Shown: positions 7,301 to 34,481, numbered from the stretch's first letter. The stretch: 34,607 nt of DNA from Reclinomonas americana ATCC 50394 (GCA_048213135.1 PS015032.1:1-34607); one strand, 5' to 3'. The notes: generated from the letters alone by a model not told the origin. Program-made: numbers and translations.

Positions 7301-10300
7301 ATCTTCCGCGGTGTTTCATTCGTCGGGTATGTGTCGACGGCGGTAGCAGACCACGCGGGACCGCCCGTTACCGAATACAGGGCTAGCATGTGCGATCAGA
7401 GCTTCGTCCGAAAAAGACATGCATAAGGTCGCCAAAACGCAACTGCTGCCTTTGTCGCCGGACGTTCGATCGGTAGCTCGATTGCCGACAAAGGTGATGT
7501 TTCGTGCCGCAGCAAACGACGTCCACCCATTGGCAATGCGAACGGCATTGCTCAGCGGCTCTAACAGAGCAGGATCTCCGTTCCCATTCCAGAAAATGCC
7601 GCCTCCGCTGCCTTCACCGTTGGTGTTGACGGCGCCCTCGTGGGCAAAAGCCCTGTTCTGTCGGAATTCGACGTTTCGCAGCAGCACAGCTGCCGAGTAA
7701 TCTACAGGAGGTGGTGTGTCGGCAATGTTGATGACCAGTCCACCACCGCGCCACGAACTTGTGTTGTTATAAAATGAGGTTTGCACGAATGAGGCGAGAG
7801 CGGAGCTGACCGTGGAAGCGCCGCCACCGTCGCTGCTCGTTGCCGTGTTGTTGGCAATAATACACCCCAAACATGAAAATGTGCTGTTGTTCAAGACTGA
7901 CAAGCCACCGCCGCGGGTTGTAGATGCCATGTTTCCCACGATTGTCGTAGAACTGACAGTCACTGTGCTCTGGTCAGCACACGCTAAACCGCCGCCACCC
8001 AGTGCCTCGTTTCCAGTAAGCAGCGCCCCTGTCAGTGTCAACGTAGCGCTCGACTGCACACAGATCGCACCGCCATCGCCACCTTTCACGACGTTTGACT
8101 GCATGACACCACCACTCAATGTGCCGCTGCTTCGATCGGTGAGGTATGCACCACCTCCGTGCAGTGCTGCTGTGCCGTTATTCAGCAAGCTGTTCTTGTT
8201 GGTCCACACTCCGAGACCACGCACAGTCACGTGTCCGCCCGAAGTTTCTGCACTATTGCCGTAAAACTGCGTGCCGATGGTTGTCAAGTTGCCGCGTTTG
8301 TCCACGAAAAAGCCTCCGCCTGCAATCGTCGCGTTGTTGTTCATAACATAGCCCTTGTACAGAACGACCGTGGCACGATCGTCAATGAATACAGCACCGC
8401 CGCTTGCATCCACCGCAGCGTTGTTCATCAACTGAACGTTGATCAGTTCATGTGAGCTCTCTGAACCAGCAAAGATACCGCCGCCGAACAAAGCTGTGTT
8501 GCTGTACACTGTCACATCCGTCCACGAAATGGGTGCGTCACCAGCATCGGTATCGCTATACACGCCGCCACCGAAGGAACCGGCAGAATTTCCGATGATG
8601 TGGGACTGAGCAATGGTGCAGGTCGCGCCGTCGGTGATGTAAACTCCTCCGCCGTGCTCAATGGCACTATTGTTCCGGATGTCTAACTGAACGACAACGA
8701 GGTTCGCCACATCAGCGCGCACCACCAACGCTCCACCATAATGAGCAGTGTTGTTGGTCAACAATGTCGACTGCACTGTTAGTGAAGGGGCGACGTCTAC
8801 CAGTGCAATGCCTCCACCGAAACCACCGCTGCGATTGCCGGCGCTGCGACGAAGGGCCGAGATGTTGCCACAAATGCTCATGTTTCGCAGCATCGCGTCT
8901 GTTCCCATGATGGCGACACCGCCCCCGGCGAACTCCACTTGATTGCCTTCCACGACACAGTCAGTCATGTTTGAGCGAAACCCCACAAGCACGCCACCGC
9001 CAGTGGCAAAGACACCCGTCACGTAGTTCGCCGAAAACGTACTGGAGGTGGCGTTGCTCATCGTATCGAGGAGCAACGCACCGCCTCCTGCTGCTTGACT
9101 GGACGAAGCGGTGGTGCCCGTAAAGACAGCCGAGTTTTGTGCAAAAGTGCAGCCGGACAACTGCACATTCTTGTAGGCCAGCAGGGCCCCTCCACCACAT
9201 TCGTCGCCAGACAGATAGACGTACTGGCCGGTTCCAGCGGCTCCAGGGTCCACCACACGGTTTCCACTGAACGTGCACTGACTGAGAAGTGCATTCTGTG
9301 CGAAGACGGCGCCACCACCATTGCGTCGACTGCCACTGCCGTCGACAACGTTGTCGTTTCCGCCGAGGCCGTCGCGCAGCGAAGTGTTACCAGTGAATGT
9401 GCAGTTCGAGACTGCGAATGCAGAGTTGTTCGAGTCCTGCTTTTTCGCACAAGGGGTGAGACGGCGAAGATGCTCCCCTGTTCCTGCTGTCGATATCCAT
9501 CACGCAACAACACTAGAAGTTGATGGGCCGATCAGAAGCAGCGCACCACCTCCGTTGATGCCCTGAGTTGAGCCGACGTTGGTGTTGTTTCCACCAATGC
9601 CGTTGAACGCGGAAAGATTGCCGTCCAGAACACACTGGTCGATGGTCTGTGTTCGAGTGTGAGTCGGAAAATTACGAGAGTGAGTGAGGAAGAGAGAGAG
9701 AGAGAGACAAACAGAGAGAGGACTCGCAGTGCTCACAAGTGACACGGTGGAATCGGGTGAGGTGTACAGGAGAACGGCTCCACCACCGCTATATGATGCT
9801 GCACTGGAGCCAGATATTCCGTTGTTATTTCCACCGTTGCCTGCATGAAAGAAACCATCACACACTGCTGACGAAACGCTCATGTTCCCACTCAAAACGC
9901 ACTGTTGTGTACAGCGGAGTTTGACCGGAAGGTAGTGCCAGTAATCTAGTGTTGGCTTCAGTGCGACATCATTCAGGGGGTGTAAGGCTCGGAGAAACGC
10001 ACCGAGAACAGAGAGGCCCACGTCGAATTGGTGGCAAGAATCGCACCGCCTCCGTTGGCCAGTGCTTTGGAGTCGCCGAATCCAGTGTTGTTTGAGCCAC
10101 CGATACCGTTGAATGCTGCTCCGTTTCCAGTGAAAACACAATTCGCGATCATCGTCTGCATAACCACACGTACGCGTTGTCAGCGAATATATACAAGCCT
10201 GGTGGTCGCTGCGTCAGTAGAAAACGAAACGCTGTTTGCCATGGGATAGAGCAAAAGCGCTCCACCGCCATTGTATCCGACACCTAGATTGCTGCCGTCT

Positions 10301-13300
10301 GATCCGCCGTTGCCTCCATTCGCATTACCATTTGCGACGTTACCGCTAAATGTTGAGTTGTTGACTAAGATCTGCATCGTACGTAGTGACAGGCCTATAT
10401 CAATAGATAGTGTTAAAGGGGAGGCCCTGCAACACAAACCTGGTAGCCGACGCTTGCGCGCTGAATACTAATTGCACCACCGCCAGCTCTGCCTCCGTTG
10501 ACGACGCGAGAGATGCCTGAACTCGAAAGGCAGCCTCCTAATGCAGGGATGAGAACAAGGATTCGGCAAACTCTACAGAAAGTTTGAGCAGCATCACGGA
10601 CCAGCACTGCCGTTGCCGTTCGCTTGATTGCCCGAAAAGCTTGTGTCGTTAACTACCACGACTCCGCCTCCCTGTTCCTGCTATGATTAGTTGTATCTGT
10701 ACAGTCTACACACGACCGACACGCTCGCGTGGTCCAACAGACCGAACTCAGTCGCAGCAATAGCGCTCCACCTCCACTTCCGAGGCTGTTGATGGTCGAG
10801 TCTCCCAGAGAGCAGTTCCCTTTGTGAATAGTGCGATCATGAGATGAATGGCGGCATGACACAAAGCAATAACGTTAACGCCCCACCACTCAGCCCGTTT
10901 CTGTTGGCAATGTTCGCGATAAATGAGGCTTGTTGCACAAGAATAACTTGGGATAGCGACTGATGTTGCCGTAAATGAGTCACTAGTCGAGCAATTCCAC
11001 GGAATAGTTACCACAACGTGTTATTACCGATCCAGATGCGCTAATGAGAAAAGCACCGCCACCGTTGTAGTATGAGAAACCCTTTCCATCTCCAGTGTTG
11101 TTGTGTCCTGCCGACAGAACACATCAGAGATCTGAGAAGAGCATTATCAGCTGACGCCGACGGCCTCACACACGAACCACCAACACCGTTCAGGAAAGCC
11201 GCATTATGAGCAAAGGTGCAGTTGCTGATTGTCATCTGCGTGCGTGGAGACTGGATTTCAAACAGAAGGGTTCAAGCTAACATTTGACATGCAGTAGAGC
11301 TTACGAACGGTACTTGTACCGCCTGCAGAGATCAGCGCGGCACCACCACCGTTGTGGTCGCCGAATGACTGATTTGTTCCCTTCTTGTCTGCAGCCGAGT
11401 TGGTATTTCGATTGAACGAGCCTGTAAGTGTAAGAGGTTCTTGTGAGGTTTCGCGCCAGATGGTTTCCGGTAATGGTTAACGTTCGTACCTCCGCAGCCA
11501 CAAGCCTGACTCGTGTTGTTAAGAAACTGAGTGCTGGCAAATGTGGAGGAAATCTGTGTCACGCACGGTAAGCTGCGCGCAGTACAGACGTCAACATGCA
11601 GACCAACATGAGCATGTTTTGACACATACTTTTCCGCTTGCAGAAAGTAAAGTAGCTCCTCCCCCGTTGACACCGCCAGACGACTTAGTCGATAACCCGG
11701 CATAACCGAGGCCTGCATTGTACTTGTTATTGCTTCCTATTATTATTACAGTATTACAGTTAATTAACCACAAGTCAGCAAAGCATCCGGTGACTCTAAG
11801 CTCCATGATTCACCTCCCACTCCACTGTCCAGCACACTATTGTTCGCGAATAAGCTCCCACTTATTGACACAGTCTGCGTCTCATGGTCGTCAACGTAGT
11901 CCAAGTTCTACATGTGGAAGATGTGCCTGCTCACCATGGACGCAAACGATTGTAGCGAAAGAGCGCCGCCTCCATTGTTCGGTCCAATACTCTGAGCATT
12001 GACTTGCGTAGTCTGCGAAGTGAAGTCGTTATTACTCCCTGTACATATATATATCATCAGTGTCGCGAGACCACTGCCACAGTGTGAGCGAATGACACAC
12101 CTCCGTTGCCTACGCGCTCAACAGTGTTATCCAAAAACCGACTTCCTTCAACAGACGTGCTCAGCGTCGACTGTGTGCGTTCGTGTAAGCAACGCTTATG
12201 ATCCTCAGCAACGATCTGGAACGGTTTGTGAACCCCACCGCCACCGACAATGCTAACCACGCCCCTCCTCCATGTCCACCCCCACGGCTGGAAGCGAACG
12301 GAAAACCGGTCGAGTGACCTGAAACAAAATGGCTGTCAGTGAATTCGGGGAGCAGACTGAAAGCAGCACAAATAGCACACCTCCACCATTGCCAGTATCT
12401 TTGGCAGAGTTGCCGACAAATGAAGTGTTGTAGATTGCCTGTGACATCGGCTATGTCGCCCGTACGCGTGGTGGTCAGGTGTCGTCTGCGACTGTGTCCG
12501 CCTTTGGCCATCAACCTTACCGATAGAGACTGGAAGAATGATAGCACTGCTCCGCCACCAGCAAGTACACTCTCCGACTCGATACTAAGTCCGGCTTCGA
12601 GACCAGTTGCATGCGTTCCACCGTTGGCGCAGTCGGACACCGTGTTTTGCGCAAAGTAGTCATCGGTAACCTCCAACGACAGAGTATTTGCGTGGGCCAG
12701 CAATATCAGCGCAAAACAAAGAAGAACCAAGTAAAGTACCTCAACTGATTGTTGAATGGACATAAGAGCTAAGGCACCGCCACCACACGCGAAACACTTC
12801 GTTGAACCACACGTGAAACCCACTGCGAAAGCTGCGTAAGTGACTGTTCCCCCTCCAGCATTGCAGGTGGAGGAGACTGAATTGCCGTCGAACGTGCATC
12901 CAGTCACCTGGCAGCGAATTCACTACAGTTAGCCACCACATCCATCTCACATCATTAGTCGTCAGCCACAATACGATTAGACGGCATACCAGTACTGAGG
13001 CTGCATCTTGCAAGCGAACGGCTCCACCAGAACATCTGTTTCCTGATACGCTACTATACACGAAGGAAGGCCCATTACACATGTCGGTGATGCTATTGGC
13101 TCCAAACGTGCTGTCTTGGAGCTGCTTGCAGACAAAGTGAGTAAGAAGGAGGCGTTTTAGCAGCACCTGCGCCATATCACTTACTCACTAACACTGTCTT
13201 CCGCGTAGCAGCCGAAGACTGAGAAGAGACAGCCCACACCGCACCACCACCACTGTTTACACCGCCCGCGCAATTGTAGATATCAGAGGTACACTCCCCG

Positions 13301-14687
13301 GCTGGACATTCGTAGCCGTTGGAACTGGACGATACCGCGTTGTTGGAGAATCGTGACCCCACAATACTGAGCACGCCAGCATTATTGACAAATAATGCTC
13401 CACCACCCACTTGACTGGAGCCAGACATGGAGTCCGGATACCCATTGCCGCAATCTGCGACGAGATTGCCCGACCACGTGCTGTTGAAGTCGGCCAGGCT
13501 CACTTGGTTCGCATCGGTGATGTATACAGCTCCGCCACCCACGTAGTCATGCGACAGGCCCGTGACAGTGTTGCCGTGAAACTCGCAACTGATCAGAGAA
13601 ACGTCAAGCAGGATCGATCCTGCACCGTAAACAAACACCGCGCCGCCACCGACGCCACCGTGGGAGGCCGAGAAATCTCCACTGCCCGTGACATTGTTAC
13701 CAACAAAAGAGGAGCTGGCGATGGTTATGACGGATGAGACGTCCGCAGGCAGCTCTACGGCAATCGCAGCGCCAGCAGCATCGGTGCCCGATTTGGCGCA
13801 CTTGACGAAACTGCTGTCCAGCACGCTCAACTGCATCACCTGTCCCTGCACGAGCAGTGCTGAGCCCGCTGCACGAGTCGCCGCCGTGGCCTGGTGATTC
13901 TGAAACATGCAGTCAGCTACCGTTAGAGTGGACGACGTCGTGGCAGTGAGTGCCACTGCCCCACCCGACAGTGAACCGGTGAACGTGCAGTCCGTCAGAG
14001 TCACCGTGCTCACGTGCACGCCTGGATTCGTCGCGAGAGCGGTCCACGCCACGGCCGGTGCTGTCTGCGACCCGCCAACGACATTCACACCCGTCAAGTG
14101 GAATTCGGCGGCCTGCAAGACGCGGAACACGCTGGCGGTCGATGGCATGTGGATGGTGGCACCAGAGGCATGCACGGTGACATTGCGACCTGGGTTGCAG
14201 GTGTGAAGCCAGAGAACAGAGGCAGGGCGGGGAGATGGTGGCTACATCGCACCTGAACTCTGCAACTGAGTGGTAGCATCGTACTCGCCAGGTGCCATCG
14301 ACACAACGAGTGACCAGGCAGGCGAATTGGCGGAGAACATTTGAGTCGCAGAGCAGGATGCTATCGCCTGCGCAAGAGTGCATGGTTGCGCTGCAGACAC
14401 ACCGCACGCGGCACTGTTCGCACTGCCACTGGGCGACACGAAAACTGCGCAAGGAATTCGAAAATGCTGTCAGCGCAAGTGGCATCAATGAAACAGCACG
14501 CGCACACACGCAGGATCCCAACAGTGCCTTCACAAGTGGTCGCAGAGCTTGTTTGTAGTGTCCAGTCGTGCTCGTGCCAGTTGCCCATGTCACGAACAAC
14601 AGCGAGAGCTACGCCCGCGAACCACATCGATAACAGAATGAGCGACAAGAGATAAACTCTGCGCCGCTCCCGTCTCGGCAAGGCCAT
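4339..14687 (-). CDS. Large cell-surface multi-pass membrane protein: signal peptide, Pmp-like GGA(I/L/V)/FxxN parallel beta-helix repeats, Cys-rich (ephrin-receptor-like) stalk, about 7 TM segments, low-complexity tail
   Basis: Hand splicing of about 33-34 GT-AG introns gives an open frame from ATG 14687 (MALPRRERRRVYLLSLILLSMWFAGVALA) to TGA 4339, roughly 2600-2700 aa by estimate. Motifs: FVSPSG...C...PC, dozens of FxxN...GGA[VIL] repeats, CPAGLYYVDKEGCQACPEGKYS, PLCGACSEGF, FGSLYEQYRP..W, HLFVRPY...NTLE. Confidence 0.88.
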
Positions 14688-18249: not shown

Positions 18250-18886
18250 GCCACAACATAGACAACCAACACTCGTCGTCGTCCTCCGTCGTCCTCTTCT
18301 CCTCTCACACAAANNNNNNNNNNNNNNNNNNNNNNNNNNNNNNNNNNNNNNNNNNNNNNNNNNNNNNNNNNNNNNNNNNNNNNNNNNNNNNNNNNNNNNN
18401 NNNNNNNNNNNNNNNNNNNNNNNNNNNNNNNNNNNNNNNNNNNNNNNNNNNNNNNNNNNNNNNNNNNNNNNNNNNNNNNNNNNNNNNNNNNNNNNNNNNN
18501 NNNNNNNNNNNNNNNNNNNNNNNNNNNNNNNNNNNNNNNNNNNNNNNNNNNNNNNNNNNNNNNNNNNNNNNNNNNNNNNNNNNNNNNNNNNNNNNNNNNN
18601 NNNNNNNNNNNNNNNNNNNNNNNNNNNNNNNNNNNNNNNNNNNNNNNNNNNNNNNNNNNNNNNNNNNNNNNNNNNNNNNNNNNNNNNNNNNNNNNNNNNN
18701 NNNNNNNNNNNNNNNNNNNNNNNNNNNNNNNNNNNNNNNNNNNNNNNNNNNNNNNNNNNNNNNNNNNNNNNNNNNNNNNNNNNNNNNNNNNNNNNNNNNN
18801 NNNNNNNNNNNNNNNNNNNNNNNNNNNNNNNNNNNNNNNNNNNNNNNNNNNNNNNNNNNNNNNNNNNNNNNNNNNNNNNNNCGTCA

Positions 18887-20236
18887 ATGAGCAACGATCC
18901 AACGTTGCACACCTCCACACCCGCCTTCTCCACGCCCGCTCACTCACTCACGCTCTTCCCGCACAGCTTGGCCGCATATTACAGCTCGCGTCGCTCAACG
19001 ACAACAACACCAACAACGCGAACTCGGCCTTTGCCTCCAATGCCCGTCGATCGCTTGGCGCGAGTGCCTTACGGTCCACTGCTGCCTGGAGTCGAGGCCG
19101 AGCGAGCACAGGAAGCACCAGTGATGGCCATGGAGGCAGATGCGTTGGCGCGGCATGTGAATGCGATCATAAGGAACAATGGTAAGCTTGCTGGCGATCG
19201 TTNNNNNNNNNNNNNNNNNNNNGCTCTGTGTGTGAGGGAGTGAGAGAGAGCACAGTGAGTATGCGTGCTTGTCTCGCTCTCATCCCGCGACAGCCACGCT
19301 TTCTCGTTTGCTTCCCGCGCGTGCGTCGGAGGGCACTCGATGGCATACTGCTTCCGCTGCTGGCGATGACGATGATGAAGGCAACGTGCTGGCAGTCGTG
19401 CAGCAACGCTCGTTCGAGGAGAGCTCGTCGAGGCCACCGCTGCCTCCTCGCGGAGGGCATGTGCGTGTGGAGCCTGAGTCGCTGGAGGAGGAGCAGGAGG
19501 AGCATGGGCGGCGTCCGAGTCGTGGTGGAGTGCGACGTGGGGTTGTCGAGTCGTTTGTGAGCTTGCGGGAGTACGACTGTCGCGTGTGCTTGTCGGAGAT
19601 GACGCGCACCAATGTCACCGTGTGCCTGCCGTGCTTTCATCGCTTCTGCTTTGCGTGCATCAAGTTGCGCAGCGACGTGAGGGAAGAGGTGGGTGATCGT
19701 GGTGGGCTCACACTCGCTGTGTGTCGCAGAAAGTGGATGAAGACGCACACTGCATGCGCCCTCTGCAACGCGCAGGTGCAGTACCTGTTGTACACCATTC
19801 GCTCGTCGACGGATTACAAGGTGCGTGGGGGGGAGGGCGAAAGGGGAAGCCAGTGTCTTACCGCTTGTCGTGCAGATCATGGACTACTCGAATCGTGCGC
19901 CGTTGCCCGAGTCCACCGGCACATTGGATCCACTGAAGCCGCCACCACCGCCAGCGGCGAATGCTGGGAAGGAAGGTGGCGACGACGACGTGCAGGTCAT
20001 TCCGGCGCCAGAAGCGAAGAAGAAAATGGAGCGTGAAGATGGCTGACCGTGCAGCAGCACAACAGGAATCGATCTGCGAGTGTGGAGCCAACCTCGACAG
20101 CGCTGTGGCATGGAGGATGCACGTGGACTGCGTCGTGCAGAGGCTGGGATTGCAGCTGGCATCGAGCAGCTACATCACGAGTTGCAGTTATGGAGGCTGG
20201 GATCGCGGGAGGCAGTCCGGTCTGTCGCGTCCTTGA
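18887..20236 (+). CDS. C3HC4 RING finger protein, TOPORS-like E3 ligase
   Basis: Removing intron 19664-19729 gives CRVCLSEMTRTNVTVCLPCFHRFCFACIKKWMKTHTACALCNAQVQYLLYTIRSSTDYK, which matches the TOPORS-type RING and its downstream motif. The start lies next to a gap. The end is TGA 20046 or, with one more intron, TGA 20236. Confidence 0.8.
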
Positions 20237-25037: not shown

Positions 25038-25829
25038 CAAGTCGACAATGAACACTGCCAGCTGTCTTCTCTGCAGTGGTGAGAGACACTAAGAAGACCA
25101 AGTCAAATGCGATCAGTCTCTGCCAGCACATCTTATCACAGAGTGCAACAAGAGAGCTCAGAGAGCGCGAGAGAGCACAGACAAGCAGCCTATCATTGCT
25201 ATCATCAAGCCCACACAATCACCCTCTTCTTGATCTGACAAGTCAGTGACAACACACNNNNNNNNNNNNNNNNNNNNNNNNNNNNNNNNNNNNNNNNNNN
25301 NNNNNNNNNNNNNNNNNNNNNNNNNNNNNNNNNNNNNNNNNNNNNNNNNNNNNNNNNNNNNNNNNNNNNNNNNNNNNNNNNNNNNNNNNNNNNNNNNNNN
25401 NNNNNNNNNNNNNNNNNNNNNNNNNNNNNNNNNNNNNNNNNNNNNNNNNNNNNNNNNNNNNNNNNNNNNNNNNNNNNNNNNNNNNNNNNNNNNNNNNNNN
25501 NNNNNNNNNNNNNNNNNNNNNNNNNNNNNNNNNNNNNNNNNNNNNNNNNNNNNNNNNNNNNNNNNNNNNNNNNNNNNNNNNNNNNNNNNNNNNNNNNNNN
25601 NNNNNNNNNNNNNNNNNNNNNNNNNNNNNNNNNNNNNNNNNNNNNNNNNNNNNNNNNNNNNNNNNNNNNNNNNNNNNNNNNNNNNNNNNNNNNNNNNNNN
25701 NNNNNNNNNNNNNNNNNNNNNNNNNNNNNNNCATGCACGAGGCCCGCAAGTGTGTGTCATATTCTGCGATTCTTGCATAGCATGCATGCAACCAGTCACT
25801 GATGCAGCAGTGAATGCTTGGCCTTCCCG

Positions 25830-26460
25830 AGTTGCTCTTCTCTCTTCCTTTTTCCTCCTCATCTTCCTCTTCCTTGGTATCATCATCATCGCCTTCTCCT
25901 TGGTCTTCTTGTTCTTCTTCTCCAATCTTTGTTCTCCATCTGCACGGTCTTCTTCTTCCGCCTCCTTCTCATGCTCCTCCTCACTTCACCCCTCCTCCGC
26001 CTCCTCCTCCTTCCATCGTTGTTCTCCCTCTGCATTTCCTCCGCCTCTTCCCTTTCATGTTCTCATCGTCTTCTTGTTCATGCTGCTGCTTCTTCTCCTT
26101 GTCCTTCTTTCTTCTCTTCTTGTTGTTGTTGTTGTTTTTCTTTTCTTCTTCTTCTTCTTCTTCTCCTCCTCCTCCTCCTCCTCCCATCGCTGTTCTCCTT
26201 CTGCATTTCCTCCGCCTCCTCTCTTTGTTGTTGTCATCGTCTTCTTGTGCTGCTCGTTCTTTTGTTTTTCCTCTCATCTTTGTTCCTCTTGTTATTCATC
26301 TTCTCCTTCTTCCTTCTCCTTCCCCTTCTCCTTTCCCTTCTCCTCCTCCACCTCCTCCTCTTCATTCTTCTCTTTTTCTCCTTCTCCCCCTCCTCCTCCT
26401 CCTCCCTCCTTCCCTCCCTTCTCACCTCCCTTCTCCCTCTCCGTCCCACTCCTCCTCCCC
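25830..26460. repeat. Polypyrimidine (CTT/CCT)n low-complexity tract, probably intronic
   Basis: Strongly C/T-biased for about 630 nt, with an internal duplication (CCATCG.TGTTCTCC.TCTGCATTTCCTCCGCCTC); ends at the acceptor CAG 26463-26465. Confidence 0.85.
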
Positions 26461-26465
26461 ATCAG

Positions 26466-27952
26466 CTTCAAGACCACATGCCACCCATCGCCCTCACCGT
26501 GCTCATGTCGGCTCCCTGCCTGGTGCTCTCCCTCGCCTTCCTGGCCTCACGCGGCCTGGTCGACTGGCGACAACTGCGACGACCAATGTCGTGGTTCTTC
26601 CTGCTGATTGTCGTGCTGGTGCGTTGCCCGCTGTGTCTCTAGTTTCTCGCACACGCTGACATTCGGCGCAGCGATACACCACCACGGTGCTTGGACCAAA
26701 GTACACCAGAGCCGCGCTGTACCAGGCCGTCGTGATGACTTCGCCATTCGTCACGGTCGGATTGGGACGGTGTTTCTTTGGCGAGCGTATCAGCTTGGTG
26801 GCTGGTGCGGCACATTTCCCCTGCCTCTCACCCCGCATTTCCGCTTTCTCAACCTTCTTTCCAGTGATCACTGCCATTTTTGCGGCATTCGGCGCCGTGC
26901 TCATGTTGTCAACCAACCTGTGGGAAGTGGGCTTCTCGGAGCTGAGCACGAATGACTACATCGGCCTCGCAAGTGCGTCGTGTTTGAGAGAGAGGCAGAA
27001 GATCCATGCCCGCCTCACTCACTCGCGCGATCAGTTGCCTGCGCTCACTCCTGCGTCTTGGCCGTGTACTTTTGTTGCGTCTCTGTTCTCCCCACCGCAC
27101 TTATGAATGCTCGACTGAAGTCGTAACTGGTTCGACACAGTGCTGCTGAAGGGCATCAAGGGCACGGTACGTCTTACTTGTCACGTGTTCGCTTGCTCTG
27201 CGTTTCTGATCGGTCATGACTTCTGCAGTCGTCGGAAACACTCTACACCTTCCAGGTGATTCCGCCTCTGATCTACGGACCGCCGGTATCCTGGGCCACG
27301 GGTGAAGGTTTGTCTCCCTCCTCTCTTCCCCTCCCTTGCTCTCTCCCTTCCCCTTCTATCCTCACTCCCTTTCCCTTGATACACAGACTGGGGCATCTTT
27401 TTGCACGTCTCCCTGCAAGGCTGGCTCATCTTCGCCGTCATCTCTGTGGGCATCCTCTTCGGCGTCAACCTCCTTCAAATGTACGTCGTCAAGAACATTG
27501 GCGCGCCGACGCACAGCAGCATGCTGGCTGTCAGCTTGGTGGCGGCCACGTTTTTCGGGTGGCTCTTTCTTGGGTGCGCTACATGGCATGCATGCATGCA
27601 TGTGGGTATTTGCTAACATCGTCGGTTGCACAGCGAGGAATTCTCGTCCGTCTGGCAGCTTCTCGGCGCAGCGCTGGTCATTGTTAGCGTCACTGTGCTC
27701 TTGTGGCGACAACGTCAGGTTGCGATGCGCGCCCTGGCCGCCCAACAGCTGGCCGCCATGGATAACGTGGAGCTGATTGAGCTGGGCGTCACCGGCACTG
27801 CCAAACAGGAAAAGAATGAGGAGATGACAGAGGAGCATGAGGATGAGGACGCCGTCGCGCGCCACTCACTGCTGTCTGATCAGGAACTACTCAGTACCGC
27901 CGACGAGGAAGAGGAGACGACAGATGGTCGTGGCAAGAATGTCGTCGTCTGA
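26466..27952 (+). CDS. EamA / DMT family transporter, paralog of the 22250-24051 gene, first exon(s) not located
   Basis: Spliced: LQDHMPPIALTVLMSAPCL...LYQAVVMTSPFVTVGLGRCFFGERIS...GAVLMLSTNLWEVGFSEL...LVAATFFGWLFLGEEFSSVWQLLGAALVIVSV, acidic tail, TGA 27950-27952. Confidence 0.87.
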
Positions 27953-27961
27953 CTGAGTGTT

Positions 27962-29703
27962 TTACAACAATTTGGAGGTGAGCAACCAGCGGCGCACCAG
28001 TGCGCGGAAGCCCACAATCGAGTCCGCCGACGCCGGGTGCACCTGCAGCAGGGCGTACGCCGGCCGTCCCATGGGCGACGGCACCTCACCAGGTGGGTCT
28101 GTGGCGTTGCCCGGCAGCACCGTGGCATGCACGCGAATCACGGATCCCGAGCGCGGCAAGGCCGGCATGCCAGTGACAAGAATGAGGAAGCGACGCAAGT
28201 CGGCTTGCGACAGCTGCCCGATGACCTGCGTGCACCAGTATGTTGAGTGAAAGAAAAACGAGGGGAAAGTGTGGAGTGTCCAACCTGAACAATATTCTGG
28301 GGGCCCGGCGACTGCGCCGCAAAGTCCTTGAAGCGCAGCGCATAGAGGACGTCGCGTGCATCCACGGCATTCGGCGCACACACCACACTCTTCAGCTCGT
28401 ACGAACCCAACTCGACAAATACCTCGGAGCGCAAACCGCAGCTCCAGCACTCGGTCAGGCCGTGACGGACCAGCTCAATGGCCTGTCGTCTCTCGGCACC
28501 CAACAAGCGAGTACGCGCTCGACCACACACATACGCCAGCACAGTCGTCGAGGTGACGGGATCCGATCGCACTGAGGTGCAAGGATGAGGAGCGAAAGGA
28601 AGAGAGATAGATGTTCGTTGTCCACTCACATGTGCCGGTCGGCAAGAACTCGCGCTCCACCAACTCAAACGTAAGATTCGCCGGCAGCGGCAGGTAGCAC
28701 AGCACTTGAAGCGCGCGAGACAAGGTCGGATCCACTGGCTCCAGCAGCGTCTGCAGCGCCATCCACACCTCCGGCGACGACATGGTCGATCGGAGGATGG
28801 TGGACAACGACGACGAGCCGGTGGCGAGCACGTCCCAGAACACAGGCGCCAGCAGCGTCGGCGGCACCGGACGACCGTCGCCCACGCACTTGGCGATGAG
28901 GTGACCGAGCTGCACCAGGTGGCGCTCGCACTCATCTCGCTGGCGCACCGGCATCGATTGCAGCGGCACCGGGTACCACACGGCGCTGTCGGGCAGACGC
29001 TCAAACGCATCGCTCTCCACCAGCAGGCGCAAAAAGAGCTGCGTGTTTCACACAAGTGAGATTCACAGTTGGAAAGAGGTGGGTGAATGGAAACAGACCT
29101 CTTCATAGAACTCGAGGACGCGGCCGCTGCGCTGCGGCACGTCGGTGAACACAACAGTGGTCGGTGCAATCCAGCTATCCAGCGGCAGTGATTCCAGTGC
29201 ATGCAGCGTAGTGCCCAGCATGGTTTCCCGTGTGACTCGAAGTTGCTGCGGAACCATGGTGAACAAAATGAGGAGGAGGAGGAGGCACGGAGACTGAACA
29301 GCGATCGCAGTACCAATCCAGGATCGTTGAGGCGGTGCAGTTCGCGTGTCTGCACCACGCCGTGTGCAAATGCCGCAATCCGCGCTTCCTCGCCTGCTTC
29401 CAATGACAGCTGCTTGGTGAAGTACGGTTGCCAGGTGGTGTCGCGGGCGTAAATGCGGGAGCTGGGGATCGGGTGAAGCTGCGGGAGAGAGTGATAATAA
29501 GTACAAGAAATCAACTGTCGTGGTTCTCTCTCCCTGATCACCTCCACGTTGACATCCCTTCGTCCTCTCTCCACCTCGTGCTATGTTCTCTATCTCTGTC
29601 TCCCTTTCTGTCGGCTTGTTAATCTCTGTGCACATCCACGTTGTCTTTTCCCTAATCCTCTCTCCACTTCTACCTCTCTCTCCGCCTCTTCTCACGCTCT
29701 GTT

Positions 29704-29740
<37 letters not shown>

Positions 29741-32700
29741 CTGTCTCTGTTTCTCCATTTCTTGCTCGCCTTCATACTCAATTACTCGCTCACTCATTCA
29801 TTAGTCTCTGCATCTCTGCTTCCATATTTCTCCCATCCTCTCCACTACATTCACCCTTCCGTCATTTCCTCCTTCCCACTTAAGCACTCCCCATCTCCTT
29901 TTGTCTCTCTTTCTCTATCTTGGCGCAACTCCACGTTGATTTTTCTCATTTCTTCCTCTGTCCACTTCAATCTCAATTCTCTCACTCCATCTCCGTCTCG
30001 CCTCTGTTTCCATGCACTAGTTTCAGCACGCCTCTCTCTCATATGCCAAGTCCGCGAGCTTCTACGTTGACGTTCCCTTCTTCCAATCCATCGATTCTCC
30101 CTCTTTTTCTCCATCTCAGAGCTCCTCCACTCTGACCCTTCGTCATCTCTTCACTTCTGTCTCACTCTCTCTCTCTCTCTCTCCCTTCTCCCTTCCCCAC
30201 CCTCTCCCATCCCTTCTCCTTCTTGCTCCCCCGCCCTCTCCCCCTTCCCGCACCATTGCCTGCAGCAGCGGCACCGCATCCGGCACCGTGATGCTCGACA
30301 GCAACGGACCAAGCATCACCTGCTCCGTGTTCACATCGACCACCACGGTGGCATCGGCACCCGCAAAGGCTCGCAGCAGCAGCATGCCCGCCGCAAACAC
30401 ATCACTCGCCATGGTCGGCGACGCACCCTCCACATGCAACTCCGGCGCCCAATATTCGGGTGCGTTGCCCGGCGTCACTGCAAACGCAAAGTGGTGTTGA
30501 GCGAGAAGGGAAAAAGAGAAGAATAACTAAGTTAGGTGGCGACTACTCACCAAGTGGTTCGCCCTTGACCAGTCGTCTGGCCGTCCGCCCAATGCCCACC
30601 CCGACAATCACCGGTCGACCGTCGGCCTGCACGAACACATGGTCGAGCGACAACTCGCCGTGGACCAGCTCGCGAGTGTGCAGCGCTTGCAGACCCTGGC
30701 AGACGAACGGCGTGAGTCACACGCAAAAGTAACGATTGGAGACTGAGGGTTCGTGACGTACGTGCAGAATACCGCGCATTACGCCGGCCAGATCGGCAGG
30801 TGAGCGCGTCTCTGCGGCCAGCCACTTTCGCAACGTTACAGGACCGACGTACGGTTGTTGCAGGAACACGACGCCGTCCACGACTCCCGTAAAGAGGCCT
30901 TCGATGCGCATGACATTCGGGTGATGGAGGGCCGACAGATCGGTCACCAGTTGCAGGAAGTGGCTCAGCACGGATCCCGCGTGACGGCAGTCGCAAAAGT
31001 CAAAGCGCTGCAGAATGCACATGTGGCCGTCCTCCTTCAATCTGCAATGGGCGTGAGAAAAAGCATCACCCGCACGTGAAAGGGAATCATACAAACTGCA
31101 CACCTGGCCATCACCACATCGCCCGTGCTGCTCATGCTCTCCACCGTGTCGTAGTCGTCGCGACGTCGACCACAGATGAACATGTCGCACTCTTGTAAGA
31201 TGCGAGGCTTGCGCGGGAGTGCGATCGGTAGCGACGAGCCAATGTCCTCCTGTACATACAAGCATCAGGGCGATGTGTGCACGACAGATTGTGTGACTCG
31301 CGATTGATTACACAACCTGCCACTTGCTCATGTCGGCCACGCGCAGTCGGAACTCGGGAACCAGCGAACTGTTCTCAAACTGCAGTCGCTGCTGCTGCGC
31401 GCGATGCATTTCGACGCGAGCGACATCTGCCGTGGACTGCAGGCGAGCCAACTCGCTCTCCAATTGTTGCATGTCGCCGGGCGCGGTACCGTCAAACTGT
31501 CCCAATCGATGTCGCAGCTGGGGTTGATAGAGATGGTGAGGTTACGGCACAGAACACGCCATGAACAATTATGATGGTCGACTGACCTGAATGCGCTCCA
31601 GCTGCAGCTCCGCCTCGGAAAGTGTTCGCTTACACCGGATCAGGTTCTCGAGGCAGCGATCCGACTCATCGTGTGCCTGCACAACCTCGCGCATCCGCGT
31701 GTACTCGGCGTTGTAGGCCACACACAGCAGATGCAGGTGCACAAGCCACTGTCATCGCGCGAGAGAATGAATGCGCATAACGACGACCGCAGCGATGAAG
31801 AAGAGACGCAACCACAGTGCGAGAGTCCAGAATGTCACGCTGGCCACTGGGTGGAACCGGGAATGTGACGATGGCCTGGAAACGATAGAAATGAGCATTG
31901 GAAGAACAGATTTCCAATAAAAGAGCAGCAATGCACTGCCTCACTCTCTCGTTCTCACGCTTGCACTCACCGAGGCCAACTTGTCATGCTCGTAGTTGAC
32001 TGCCGCCAGAAGAGCGGGTGTGGCCGCTCTGTCACCACGCTCGTCCACAGGAGCCTCCATCCACGCACGATTGGTGCGCAAGACGGCATCGGAGAGCCAG
32101 CGCGCTTCGTCCACCACCCACCGACCAATGTCGGTGTACAACTGAGACACGTTCACTGCACGCGCCTGTGAGCCCGTGCAGACATCAAGAAAAAACAACA
32201 GAATTCCACGACACTCACCGTCAACTTGACGCTCGCTCTCATCAAACGACGACGAATCGCGCGCCGCCGTTAGTGCAGGCGGATGCAACAGTTGCTGCTG
32301 CACATGCTCGTTGAGGACGAGGTGCAATCGCGCCGCTTCTGTGCACTCTCGACGACGAAGCTCGACCGCTTGCTTCACTTCATCGGACATGCTGTGAAGA
32401 ATGAAATGAGTACGCCGTCCTTTCGAAGATACGCGCTTGTGCGACTCACCGCCAGTGCTTATTGACGAGATTTTCGACGGCCGCAATGGCGGTATTGGCG
32501 GCAGCCAGTCGCGCCTCCAACAATGTGATCAATTCGCGCGTCTCGTGGTGCGAGGTGTGCAGCTGTGCCGCAATATAACCGTCACCACATGATGGGAGAC
32601 ACAGCGCGGAGCATTGAGAGTACAAGACGCACCCAGTCAATCAGCTCGATCACCTGCTGGATCTTCAGCTCTGCCGCACTGCGACGAAGTGCCGCCAGCG

Positions 32701-34481
32701 TCTCTCCGCTCGAGAGCGTCTGCTCCGTGGCCGCCAGTGTTGGTGGCAGCGGCGTCTCTGCGATGCCTTCCAGGAACACGGCCAGTTGGTCCAGTGATTC
32801 TGCGGCGCCATGAAGTGAGAAGAAAGTGCGTGCACAAAGGGTGGACTGCAGAGGCGCGCTTACCGATTTTGTGATCGACATCACACCAAGGACCTCGAAT
32901 CCAGTCGTTTGGTTCGACGACAGGCAATGGCAAGTGAACCTTGCGGGGAGAGTGGAGTGAGAAATAATAAGTGCGAGGACGACCTCCTGGTGTCTGCACA
33001 CCTGATCGGGAAACTCCTCATTCGGGTTGCGCTTCCGCACGGGATGCGCGGAGGGGGAATCGCGTTGACCGCGATGATGGCGGACCTCCATGCAGAACGA
33101 GTGCAGTCCATTCGTCAGCAGGTGGCCGGGAATGGCACAGCAGAAGACGTCGGGGTCCACTTCGCGAGTGTACGACGTGTCGACCACTGTGCATGCCAAA
33201 TGAGTGCCACGAGAGAGAAGGATTCCACACACTGTGCTTGAGCAGCACCTTGCACGCTCTTGTCCGGCTTGACGTGCACGAGGCGCGCGTCGAACTCAGC
33301 CGAGGGGAACTTGCGCGACACCCACTGCAGCCGCACTTCACCGCCCACCAGGTGCGGCTCATCGGCCGATGCCACTCCCATGACGCGTCGCGGCAATACT
33401 TGCAGGGCCGGCACTTCGTTGCCATCAATGCCCGGTTGCTCCAGCATGCTCACCTCTGCAATCGGGTGAGTTCACACGCAAAGCAGAGTGAGAGAGGGAA
33501 GGACAGTGATTGGCACGCACCGACGTGCATGGAGAAGACGTCGTTGCTGGCGCCGGAGCCACCAAACATCATGCAGCTGGTTGGAGGGATGAAAATGAGC
33601 AACGGGGGAAGTGGGGAGACAGTGGGAAAGACTGCAGGCAAACCAGTCGGGACGAAGTCGCACGAGTGAGTGGCCGGCGCGCGCAGTGGGGCACTCGGTA
33701 TCGGCGGGGAACTCATGACGGTGCCATGTCATGGAGACTGGGGTGATGGGAAGGAGGGGTATGTAAGATCAGGATTGCGCATAAAAAAGCACACACACAA
33801 ACGCACAGGCTGACACTCACTCACGTAAACACCACGCACACAAACGCACACACGAATAGGCAGGCACGTACACACTCTCTCACAGCACTCCTTAACTCAC
33901 TCCTTCACTCACTGTCACTCACACAATACAACCCGTACGCGCTCACACAATTGCAAATCACCACGCTTACGCAAGCACGAATTCTCTCACTCACTCACTC
34001 GCTCACTCTCCTTCACTCACACGTCACACACTCCTTCACTCACTCTCACTCACTCTCACTCACACAGTACAACCCGTACGCACTCACACAGATCACCATG
34101 CATACGCAAGCACGAACTCTCTCACTCGCTCACTCCTTCACTCACTCTCTCAATCAGTCATCAAGTCACTCACTCTCACACAAATATCACGCTCAATCTC
34201 ACAAACTCAGTCACACTAACAACACTCACTTACTCACTCAGTTATTCTCATACTCACTCACTCACTCACTCACACCACGCACACACTTCTTTGCAGTCTC
34301 ACTGGGGACTAACCCGTGTTCAACTCATACAGATGGGGCGACAGAGCGCCATTCACATCGCGTCCACCCAAGATCACTAGACGCGTCTTGTAGATGTTGA
34401 CGGCCGCGGCGCCGGCCAGCGGCGGTGGGGCGTGTGCCGAGGTGGCGTTGGCGAAGGCCACGCGCGACCAGGTCATCGTAA
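27962..34481 (-). CDS. Kelch repeats, possible Ig/CBM-like domain, coiled coil, pseudokinase and pseudo-HECT multidomain protein (5' partial)
   Basis: About 21 GT-AG introns give a continuous frame. Kelch: PPPLAGAAA..LVILGG, PTARAGHS..MMFGG. Kinase: LHHPNVMRI, GLQALH..LVHGEL, YWAPEL, SDVFAAG, MLHP...R....QPYF. HECT: LRVTRE..., LGHLIAKCV.DG, RRFLILVTG..ALP. Stop TAA 27962-27964. The first visible exon begins at an acceptor (34481), so upstream exons probably lie outside the window. Confidence 0.85.
33790..34285. repeat. (CACT)n/(CA)n degenerate microsatellite inside an intron
   Basis: Dense CACT units plus a duplicated block ACAACCCGTACGC.CTCACACA...ACGCAAGCACGAA. Confidence 0.85.

Follow-up and report, generated by a model that had tools for sequence, protein, structure and literature searches.

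A Reclinomonas americana kinase-HECT fusion gene that is probably non-enzymatic in both of its enzyme-like domains

The gene analysed in this study, which encodes a kinase-like and a HECT-like domain in a single predicted protein, is likely to represent a non-enzymatic branch of a protist family of kinase-ligase fusions that is already known, since both domains appear to lack the residues that their chemistry needs. It is located on a stretch of Reclinomonas americana DNA of 34,607 nucleotides (the window). The account that in our view explains the data best as a whole, and which we hold with reasonable though not high confidence, is that of an intact and divergent gene of the kinase-HECT family, whose two domains would both be catalytically dead and whose product would play a non-catalytic role as scaffold or regulator. 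Such a reading had been outlined in a first-pass annotation of the same DNA, of which the dead but homologous domains, the intact gene and the existence of active-looking relatives have stood, while the suggested role as scaffold, E2 sponge or dominant-negative partner would be an interpretation that goes beyond these features.

As modelled, a large and intact eukaryotic gene is represented at the locus by its 3' two-thirds. The kinase and HECT part of this gene is contained in nine exons on the minus strand spanning 31249-27962, whose introns all combine a GT donor with a CAG acceptor and whose spliced product consists of 688 open codons in a single frame. The full chain in the window, a hand model with checked phases, comprises 21 exons and 20 GT-AG introns, with 1277 codons and no internal stops, and extends past the window end; cruder automatic exon chains are also open. 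About 21 introns had initially been counted across an open frame, of which the open frame holds whereas the count in the window is 20. The features referred to below are the following:

31317..34481, minus strand: twelve further exons upstream in this open chain, with Kelch-like blades and then a helical region (hand model)
31104..31249, minus strand: exon 1 of the kinase-HECT part, a linker plus a Gly-rich loop in degenerate form, S-M-S-S-T-G-D (profile alignment)
30762..31041, minus strand: exon 2, kinase N-lobe (profile alignments, PDB matches)
30551..30695, minus strand: exon 3, catalytic and activation loops (PDB phmmer, profile alignments)
30254..30477, minus strand: exon 4, kinase C-lobe, in which A-P-E and S-D-V-F-A-A-G are retained (Pfam, PDB, profile)
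29479..30253, minus strand: long intron (775 nt), GA-rich and bounded by GT..CAG, separating the kinase and HECT halves
29314..29478, minus strand: exon 5, final portion of the kinase-like domain (subdomain XI with I-P-S-S-R, followed by Q-P-Y-F-T) and linker to HECT (family alignment)
29099..29245, minus strand: exon 6, HECT start, L-R-V-T-R-E-T-M-L ... V-V-F-T-D (profile alignment)
28630..29038, minus strand: exon 7, HECT N-lobe (Atlas, profile alignment)
28285..28571, minus strand: exon 8, covering the last part of the HECT N-lobe and the first part of the C-lobe, with V-V-C-A-P
27962..28225, minus strand: exon 9, the last, 87 codons and TAA at 27962-27964; C-lobe L-V-T-G-M-P-A-L-P-R-S-G, then a 60-residue tail
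27965..28144, minus strand: the C-terminal 60 residues, the site of the Cys loop and of the Phe at -4 in HECT domains, here with neither
26660..27952, plus strand: last exons of a convergent EamA-type transporter gene (Pfam EamA E 1.5e-4 and 0.011, two exon-bearing frames)

The splice model is reflected in the sequence itself. The frame of exon 4 meets a stop if continued into the 775-nt intron, and removal of this intron yields a motif that runs without interruption from exon 4 into exon 5. Intron 6, which with 60 nt is in phase, contains two stops. The GC content at codon positions 1, 2 and 3 is 0.67, 0.46 and 0.76, with values of 0.45-0.56 in introns. The first-pass claim of an intact frame is thus borne out by nine exons bounded by GT..CAG introns, by their 688 open codons and by a frame-specific coding signal.

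These properties bear on the possibility that the gene was recently inactivated, as a unitary or duplicate pseudogene without visible lesions, in which case the loss of residues would reflect decay instead of a new role. We consider this unlikely, despite the fact that no orthologue or paralogue was found either in protein searches or in a metagenome scan with exon 7: a word-indexed search among longer proteins returned 1612 candidates, of which none reached E <= 0.001 or even E <= 10, a full phmmer search over 1.84 billion representatives gave no match and did not recover even the product of the gene itself, and none of the 305 pattern matches of the metagenome locus scan was confirmed. Similarly, the 60-codon tail could be open by chance with p ~0.18 at the local base composition. 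However, the identity of the protein to its nearest relatives amounts to only 13-39%, and after neutral divergence of such depth the frame should be broken, whereas it is kept throughout 1277 stop-free codons and 20 in-phase GT-AG introns. The two alternative frames of the 688-codon spliced sequence contain 14 and 9 stops, where about 20 would be expected at random, and codon bias is strongly frame-specific even in the C-terminal tail, with log-odds of +20.2 bits in its own frame compared to -41.8 and -26.5 bits in the others. Since codon usage favours its own frame, the tail is presumably translated as read.

A second alternative concerns the upstream part of the gene, where the first three exons in the window encode two Kelch-like blades (34314-34481 and 33644-33737 + 33521-33576), followed by a helical, coiled-coil-like region of ~480 residues. 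The Kelch matches are weak and found at the level of exons (PF24681 with E 9e-4 and 19 bits at a cut-off of 50, Kelch_4 with E 0.005 and Kelch_3 with E 0.032), all of them under Pfam cut-offs and in two exon-bearing frames at the window edge, where the remainder of a propeller would lie beyond that edge. In light of these scores, of upstream exons that are a hand model from which automatic chains differ in places, and of one exon that starts with C-ATG, the Kelch-like exons might belong to a separate upstream gene, so that the kinase-HECT gene would begin inside the window and lack a Kelch adaptor. We give this arrangement a small chance, slightly below that of a pseudogene, as the Kelch-like blades are joined to the kinase part by an unbroken and phase-consistent chain of 12 exons, and the exon starting with C-ATG is preceded by a pyrimidine tract and CAG, with a phase that completes the open codon of the preceding exon.

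The kinase-like domain is recognized in the spliced protein by a profile built from 38 kinase ORFs with a score of 30.9 bits (E 9e-12, compared to -0.7 bits for the best of 200 shuffles), which, like that of the HECT profile described below, depends on the hand splice model and on custom profiles from motif-selected ORFs. Its assignment is mirrored in phmmer searches of single exons against the PDB, where kinases account for 44 of the 45 matches of exon 3 (the best being 9gmp_A with E 0.0028), for 9 of 14 matches of exon 4, located at the APE region and with a DELLA protein as top match, and for 5 of 7 matches of exon 2 (E 0.17 to 1.6). The official Pfam model Pkinase (PF00069) matches exon 4 at profile positions 161-194 with E 0.067, far under the cut-off. 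For the placement of catalytic columns, we have relied on profile alignments and on the alignment between exon 3 and 9gmp_A obtained from the PDB search, and the columns are named according to the usual kinase nomenclature. In these alignments, the column of the beta3 Lys is occupied by Gln (31008-31010) in the sequence C-I-L-Q and that of the alphaC Glu by a Leu encoded in exon 2. The catalytic loop H-R-D-L-K-x-x-N is replaced by H-G-E-L-S-L-D-H (with H-G-E at 30654-30662), which converts its Asp, Lys and Asn into Glu, Ser and His, and the DFG position reads G-V-G (30594-30602), with a Gly in place of the Asp. In contrast, profile and family alignments show that APE, S-D-V-F and the Arg of subdomain XI have been retained. 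The substitutions in beta3 (noted as CILQR), in the catalytic loop and at DFG, as well as the conserved elements, had all been described in the first-pass annotation, whose coordinates are correct and whose assignments agree with the alignments to 9gmp_A and the profiles. Together with the profile match, they demonstrate for the predicted protein that its kinase-like domain is a true homologue without any of the residues needed for phosphate binding and transfer.

The HECT-like domain follows at the C-terminus. A profile built from 36 HECT ORFs matches residues 298-628 of the spliced protein with 50.1 bits (E 1e-17 in a one-sequence search; best of 200 shuffles 1.5), covering positions 41-357 of 421 in a colinear manner across five exons and ending at the Gly of P-R-S-G. 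This identity is significant on the spliced protein only. In the official Pfam scan, which was run exon by exon, HECT (PF00632) matches exon 9 at profile positions 223-249 of 306 with E 0.36 and 10.9 bits (cut-off 23.9), and exons 5-8 show no HECT match. Per-exon PDB searches likewise found no HECT domain, with no match for exon 7, one unrelated match for exon 8 and three unrelated matches for exon 9 (E >= 0.34). When the window was scanned in six frames (1109 pieces) with the HECT profile, the top four hits were exons of the gene in profile order, and in the Atlas, HECT was found in 28 of the 30 nearest clusters of exon 7 (score 0.96) and in all 30 of exon 9 (score 0.97), with recognition in both cases under the tool's mark of 2300 (2111 for exon 9). 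An AlphaFold2 model of exon 9 alone, calculated without an alignment, has a mean pLDDT of 46 and is unusable for a fold search. In the spliced model, which depends on the joining of exons 4 and 5 over the 775-nt intron, a kinase domain is located directly N-terminal to a C-terminal HECT domain.

The pronounced departure from other HECT domains concerns the end of the protein. Its last Cys is residue 570 of 688 (V-V-C-A-P in exon 8), which aligns to a non-catalytic position of L-l-c-G, and the final 118 residues are free of Cys, whereas the catalytic Cys is found 31-35 residues from the C-terminus in 42 canonical reference ORFs that were chosen for that spacing. In hmmalign, the tail of the gene remains unaligned, while 36 of 36 references contain a Cys in the column. 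The tail obtains no score with a generic HECT tail profile and -2.0 bits with a family tail profile, a value equalled by 297 of 1000 shuffles. With 60 residues, compared to 56-66 in references, its length is normal and the domain sits at the C-terminus, but there is no Phe at -4, the protein ending with S-K-L-L where references end with G-F-G-x-x or F-D-L-L, as had already been recognized. A crude comparison of regional identity in 45 gapped pairs (20-27% in the tail compared to 13-39% elsewhere) does not set the tail apart as more diverged. The first-pass annotation had placed the catalytic Cys at an Ala (28058-28060) by pairing P-M-G-R-P-A-Y-A-L-L with P-x-A-H-T-C-F-N-x-L. Whereas the coordinate and the absence of the Cys hold, the exact pairing results from a forced MAFFT alignment that carries no statistical support, and the closest-family alignment uses a different register. 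Collectively, the alignments establish at the level of the predicted protein that the HECT-like domain keeps the N-lobe and the first half of the C-lobe and that, in place of an active-site half, it ends with 60 unrelated residues without a Cys, a tail of normal length.

It appears very improbable that the protein is still a ligase, either by obtaining a Cys from an alternative 3' exon or by using another nucleophile in a rebuilt active site: the canonical length of the tail, the preserved E2-binding N-lobe and gaps in the assembly of the window (the closest on the downstream side being 25258-25731) would be compatible with such activity, but the best match of a tail profile in any of six frames of the 34.6-kb window has E 3.9 and is far from the gene, the minus frames from 25732 to 29500 contain no active-site-like motif, so that a Cys-restoring last exon, which had been named as a potential counterargument, is not supplied by any other frame or exon in the window, the stop of the convergent transporter gene is only 9 nt from that of the kinase-HECT gene and therefore leaves no nearby space for an extra 3' exon, the codon bias of the tail argues for its translation as read, and the sole Cys of the C-lobe aligns to a non-catalytic column.

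The relationship to other proteins places these losses in context. Among 61 environmental HECT ORFs, two contain a kinase domain, and these rank first and third against the HECT part of the gene, while the sequences L102, L094 and P0002 are the top three of 44 against its kinase part, in comparison sets that are small and motif-selected. Pkinase and HECT were confirmed by Pfam in both environmental fusions, where HECT scores 179-192 bits, compared to E 0.36 on one exon in the gene. A family profile of five sequences matches the gene with 86.4 bits (best shuffle 0.1), and the match runs in sequence from the kinase N-lobe through its C-lobe to HECT. For each of the two halves, the nearest sequences identified are L102:4290-6389:+, L094:8422-10911:- and P0002, which share with the gene the C-[VI]-L-x motif in beta3, the L-S-L-D loop variant, P-Y-F-T following the kinase and the order of domains. 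Unlike the gene, they retain the beta3 Lys, the alphaC Glu and D-F-G, which reads D-F-T in L094, as well as a complete L-P-E-A-H-T-C-F-N ... F-D-L-[LI] tail, although the catalytic loop in these nearest relatives is already non-canonical, with H-R-S or H-Q-N instead of H-R-D. The active kinase-HECT relatives proposed in the first-pass annotation thus exist as active-looking proteins that keep L-P-E-A-H-T-C-F-N, but they come from environmental contigs, and paralogues in the Reclinomonas genome would be hypothetical. P0004 was considered as a second relative without the Cys and rejected, as it departs right after L-P-E at a codon starting with GT, which we read as an intron that automatic gene calling had left unspliced. 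Judged by its sequence, the gene is a divergent member of a protist kinase-HECT fusion family, to whose members both of its halves are nearest. In L094, 9gmp_A is the only kinase among the 60 best PDB matches (E 1.1e-13), and we take 9gmp to be the kinase domain of Leishmania TKUL. Since the kinase domains of both the relatives and the gene match it best, the kinase-HECT fusion, of which the initial annotation was unaware, is an already known family and it is the HECT domain without a Cys that is unusual. The respective protein from Leishmania mexicana, TKUL or HECT12, was reportedly the subject of a study by Fokkens et al. (2025, Mol Cell).

The proposed architecture would thus start with Kelch-like blades, continuing with a long helical region and a kinase fold, and end with a C-terminal HECT fold, in a protein that should be unable to phosphorylate or to form a thioester with ubiquitin. 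It would instead work non-catalytically as scaffold or regulator, most likely by binding partners or oligomerizing via its Kelch-like and helical parts, with the retained HECT N-lobe and the pseudokinase as surfaces on which an E2 or active relatives, for instance, could dock. More tentatively, and with a probability that we regard as modest, the protein could be a natural pseudo-HECT kept under selection and fused to a dead pseudokinase, which acts as a brake on active kinase-HECT ligases in the organism or as a decoy for them. In that case, it might hold E2 or substrate via its N-lobe and Kelch-like parts or co-assemble with active copies via the helical region.

Pseudoenzymes are known among kinases, phosphatases, proteases, E2s and deubiquitinases. 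According to the pertinent section of a 2023 review that cites Murphy et al., they are apparently absent from the HECT family, which is viewed there as a sign that catalysis is indispensable (PMC10211241), and a phrase search of the accessible literature for 'pseudo-HECT' returned only two partial Leishmania domains that are suspected pseudogenes. An intact gene that encodes a HECT N-lobe and half of the C-lobe but has discarded the Cys loop would be a counter-example to this view, and if the decoy reading were true, the family would gain the pseudoenzyme counterpart that, according to that section of the review, is apparently missing (PMC10211241). This value is limited to a single gene in one organism, whose reading as a dead enzyme is based on sequence.

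Pseudokinases and inactive HECT folds have separate precedents in known systems. As described in the same review, the pseudokinase Tribbles, which lacks the DFG Asp, serves with COP1 as substrate-positioning scaffold in a ubiquitin-ligase setting (PMC10211241), but its ligase is a separate and active RING protein that is recruited via a short motif, whereas the ligase-like domain of the gene is fused and would be inactive. In human and mouse G2E3, the HECT domain is described as non-functional (PMC3673628, citing Brooks 2008) and thus provides a precedent for a non-ligase HECT fold, although G2E3, unlike the gene, contains active RING/PHD-like fingers and no kinase domain. Closer in composition are HECT proteins of Naegleria gruberi and Ectocarpus siliculosus (GL-Bikonta class IV), where a divergent HECT domain is combined with an 'unusual protein kinase domain of unknown function' and for which, in the description on which our comparison is based, loss of the Cys is not reported; Kelch repeats are also noted there on Ectocarpus HECT proteins (Grau-Bove et al. 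2013, PMC3673628). The closest parallel is found in TKUL, where, as in the gene, a kinase domain adjoins HECT in one polypeptide and where, as far as described in the accessible account, it acts as an allosteric regulatory module for the ligase (PMC13196369; 10.64898/2026.05.08.723729). According to the same account, TKUL needs both activities and its ligase requires autophosphorylation (PMC13196369; 10.64898/2026.05.08.723729), whereas the gene appears to lack both sets of residues, namely the kinase Lys, Glu, Asp, Asn and DFG Asp and the HECT Cys. The Gly following the His of the catalytic loop is common to both (H-G-D in 9gmp_A and H-G-E in the gene), while the Kelch-like and long helical regions upstream distinguish the gene from TKUL. 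In the product of the gene, a TKUL-like kinase switch and the ligase would both be frozen, and because the gene belongs to the TKUL family, it may offer a natural comparison for the TKUL mechanism in which both switches are off.

The minus-strand gene described in the first-pass annotation as a dead kinase joined to a dead HECT domain is a real, intact and coding member of a kinase-HECT family, and the catalytic residues are missing from both of its enzyme domains. It resides in eukaryotic DNA with a GC content of about 0.56 that contains assembly gaps. The kinase part is encoded by exons 1-5 and the HECT part by exons 5-9 of the following feature:

31249-27962, minus strand: nine exons of the kinase-HECT gene, with GT donors and CAG acceptors

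Upon splicing, these exons form a single open frame of 688 codons ending with a TAA at 27962-27964, while the remaining two frames of the same sequence contain 14 and 9 stops. The GC content at codon positions 1/2/3 of 0.67/0.46/0.76, compared to 0.45-0.56 in introns, provides a clear coding signal. Twelve additional exons upstream complete a hand-built model with checked phases: 21 exons separated by 20 introns, with 1277 stop-free codons, extending past the window edge on its 5' side. Cruder automatic exon chains are likewise open, with details differing from the hand model. On the first in-window exons, matches to Kelch repeats are weak (E 9e-4, 0.005 and 0.032), each under the Pfam cut-off. 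The introns between the nine exons include seven of 58-73 nt and one GA-rich intron of 775 nt (29479-30253). The latter and a second long intron on the same strand (33738-34313, 576 nt) carry GA-rich and GT-rich microsatellite-like repeats, whereas every other intron of the gene measures 58-222 nt.

Reference sequences for both domains were obtained by scanning public contigs with degenerate back-translations of one short motif per family and excising the ORFs around matches. Since references were chosen by that motif, its columns are invariant by construction. Among 145 HECT-motif ORFs, 51 have the Cys preceded by at least 330 residues and followed by 25-45; a stricter filter (at least 370 before, 31-35 after) left 42 canonical sequences, and 36 after removal of near-duplicates, which define a profile of 421 positions. 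The kinase profile was built from 54 ORFs cut to 38. Both profiles recognize the spliced protein, in line with the domains proposed from inspection of the sequence: the kinase profile with 30.9 bits (E 9e-12 in a one-sequence search; best of 200 shuffles -0.7) and the HECT profile with 50.1 bits (E 1e-17; best shuffle 1.5) at residues 298-628, in a match that is colinear through exons 5-9 and spans four splice junctions. A six-frame scan of the window covered 1109 open pieces; the best three kinase matches are the frames with exons 2, 4 and 3, and the best four HECT matches those with exons 9, 8, 6 and 7, in profile order.

Database queries of Pfam, the PDB, protein collections and the Atlas used single exons rather than the spliced protein. 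Pfam returned only Pkinase for exon 4 (E 0.067) and HECT for exon 9 (E 0.36), both far under the cut-offs and located at the expected profile positions. In PDB searches, 44 of the 45 matches of exon 3 are kinases (top 9gmp_A, a kinase chain, E 0.0028), as are five of seven weak matches of exon 2 and nine of 14 matches of exon 4, where an unrelated DELLA protein ranks first. HECT domains are absent from the PDB results for exons 7, 8 and 9, each queried singly. Exon 7 found no match in a word-indexed protein search, a full phmmer search over 1.84 billion representatives or a metagenome scan and thus missed even its own gene product, which implies that the searched collections apparently do not contain the proteins of this genome. 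The language-model-based Atlas placed exon 7 in HECT clusters in 28 of 30 cases and exon 9 in 30 of 30, with both recognition values under the mark of the tool.

The kinase-like domain is a pseudokinase by all sequence criteria, as illustrated by its catalytic positions:

Residues of the gene product at catalytic kinase columns, from the profile alignment
beta3 Lys column: Gln
alphaC Glu column: Leu
HRD Asp column: Glu
catalytic-loop Lys column: Ser
catalytic-loop Asn column: His
DFG Asp column: Gly

In the alignment of exon 3 to 9gmp_A, H-G-E-L-S-L-D-H pairs with H-G-D-L-K-P-S-N and G-V-G with D-F-G. The annotated loss of the beta3 Lys, HRD Asp, loop Lys, loop Asn and DFG Asp is confirmed, and the coordinates assigned to Gln (31008-31010), H-G-E (30654-30662), G-V-G (30594-30602) and Ala (28058-28060) are all correct. 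The domain retains A-P-E, S-D-V-F-A-A-G and the Arg of subdomain XI, and the splice over the 775-nt intron preserves the continuity of the motif (L-L-Q-A-M / L-H-P-I-P-S-S-R).

In the HECT-like domain, the profile alignment ends at the Gly of L-V-T-G-M-P-A-L-P-R-S-G, leaving the last 60 residues (28144-27965), the place of the catalytic Cys loop in HECT domains, unaligned, whereas all 36 references carry a Cys in the catalytic column. This tail is of normal length (references 56-66) but does not score with the HECT tail profile built from the references and obtains -2.0 bits with that of the closest family, a value reached by 297 of 1000 shuffles. The absence of a Cys from the tail is not in doubt: there is none after residue 570 of the 688-residue protein, and the Cys at that residue falls in a non-catalytic column of the alignment. 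Its proposed replacement by the Ala at 28058-28060 is less secure, since a forced MAFFT alignment pairs the two while the alignment to the closest family adopts a different register, and the exact correspondence is thus unproven. The near-terminal Phe, found near position -4 in references, is absent as described, with the protein ending in S-K-L-L. In a crude table of regional identities, the tail does not stand out, at 20-27% (45 gapped pairs) against 13-39% in other regions, which counts against its proposed special decay, although profile tests are the better measure.

A Cys encoded elsewhere appears unlikely. The tail profile matches no frame of the window (best E 3.9, far from the gene), and an active-site-like motif was not found in the minus frames of 25732-29500. 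The codon log-odds of the tail (+20.2 bits in its own frame, -41.8 and -26.5 in the others) argue against a frameshifted or untranslated segment. A restoring exon may hide inside an assembly gap, but the nearest one downstream is 2.2 kb away, past a convergent EamA-type transporter gene (26660-27952, plus strand) that abuts the kinase-HECT stop. Because 9 nt separate the two stop codons, the 3' untranslated regions necessarily overlap, which points to a compact genome.

The closest relatives found are environmental kinase-HECT fusions. Among 61 environmental HECT ORFs of at least 300 residues, only L102 and L094 also contain a kinase domain, and they rank first and third against the HECT part of the gene product; Pfam detects Pkinase and HECT in both (HECT 179 and 192 bits). 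A protein search with L102 retrieved 13 proteins, including itself (P0001) and the further fusion P0002, and L102, L094 and P0002 are the top three of 44 against the kinase part. A profile of five family members matches the gene product with 86.4 bits in three colinear stretches (best shuffle 0.1). Unlike the gene product, these relatives keep the beta3 Lys, alphaC Glu and D-F-G (D-F-T in L094) and the full L-P-E-A-H-T-C-F-N ... F-D-L-[LI] tail, and their HECT domains look fully active. Their catalytic loop reads H-R-[SC]-L-S-L-D in four of six cases, H-Q-N in L094 and H-R-D only in P0007. Since L-S-L-D is shared with most of them, the non-canonical loop predates the gene, whereas, among the sequences compared, the losses of Lys, Glu, DFG Asp and HECT Cys are specific to it.

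The kinase part of L094 finds 9gmp_A in the PDB (E 1.1e-13) as the sole kinase among the 60 best matches. With Lys, Glu and D-F-G kept and mostly H-R-S or H-Q-N in place of H-R-D (L102, L094, P0002, P0005-P0007), the clade's kinase module may function as a pseudokinase switch that binds nucleotide. P0004 (474 aa), considered as a second Cys-less HECT protein, diverges from the family consensus immediately downstream of L-P-E in the active-site motif and terminates shortly afterwards, probably due to an unspliced intron in the automatic gene call.

Divergent HECT domains are also found in long proteins of giant-virus contigs (L003, L013, L015, L016, L017, L019, L023, L025), with Pfam scores of 23-43 bits for L003, L013, L015, L016, L017 and L019 and no match for L025. 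Several extend 38-65 residues beyond the Cys, compared to 31-35 in cellular-type references, and two contain a 2-cysteine adaptor domain. Within the window, an open frame at 19236-20033 (plus strand), flanked by gaps at 18314-18881 and 19203-19222, constitutes a second ubiquitin-system-like gene with RING-finger matches (zf-RING_2 at E 1.7e-4 plus four related models, none reaching its cut-off). A 727-codon frame at 7319-9499 (minus strand) matches the Chlamydia polymorphic-membrane-protein repeat PF02415 (E 5.4e-7, 29.7 bits, cut-off 20.6); the similar-looking minus frames 9503-10213, 12164-12919 and 13180-14241, which contain Gly/Asn-rich F-x-G-N-like motifs, could belong to a single very large repeat protein as additional exons.

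Collectively, the first-pass observation is confirmed and its interpretation supported in part. The deep divergence, together with a frame open over 1277 codons, 20 introns in phase and a kept codon bias, favours long-term maintenance by selection over decay, as an argument and not a measurement. The gene product would act without catalysis, and a putative role as scaffold or decoy, in which the Kelch and helical parts would serve for binding or assembly, would be the most economical mechanism. In literature phrase searches, 'pseudo-HECT' appeared only for two partial Leishmania domains, taken as possible pseudogenes. A survey of HECT proteins (Grau-Bove et al., 2013, PMC3673628) describes 'unusual protein kinase domains' in HECT proteins of Naegleria and Ectocarpus; Kelch repeats also occur on HECTs of Ectocarpus, and the HECT domain of G2E3 is called 'non-functional'. 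In Leishmania TKUL/HECT12, a kinase domain is integrated as a regulatory element, according to a review (2026, PMC13196369), and both activities matter, with ligase activity requiring autophosphorylation, as stated in a preprint (2026, 10.64898/2026.05.08.723729).
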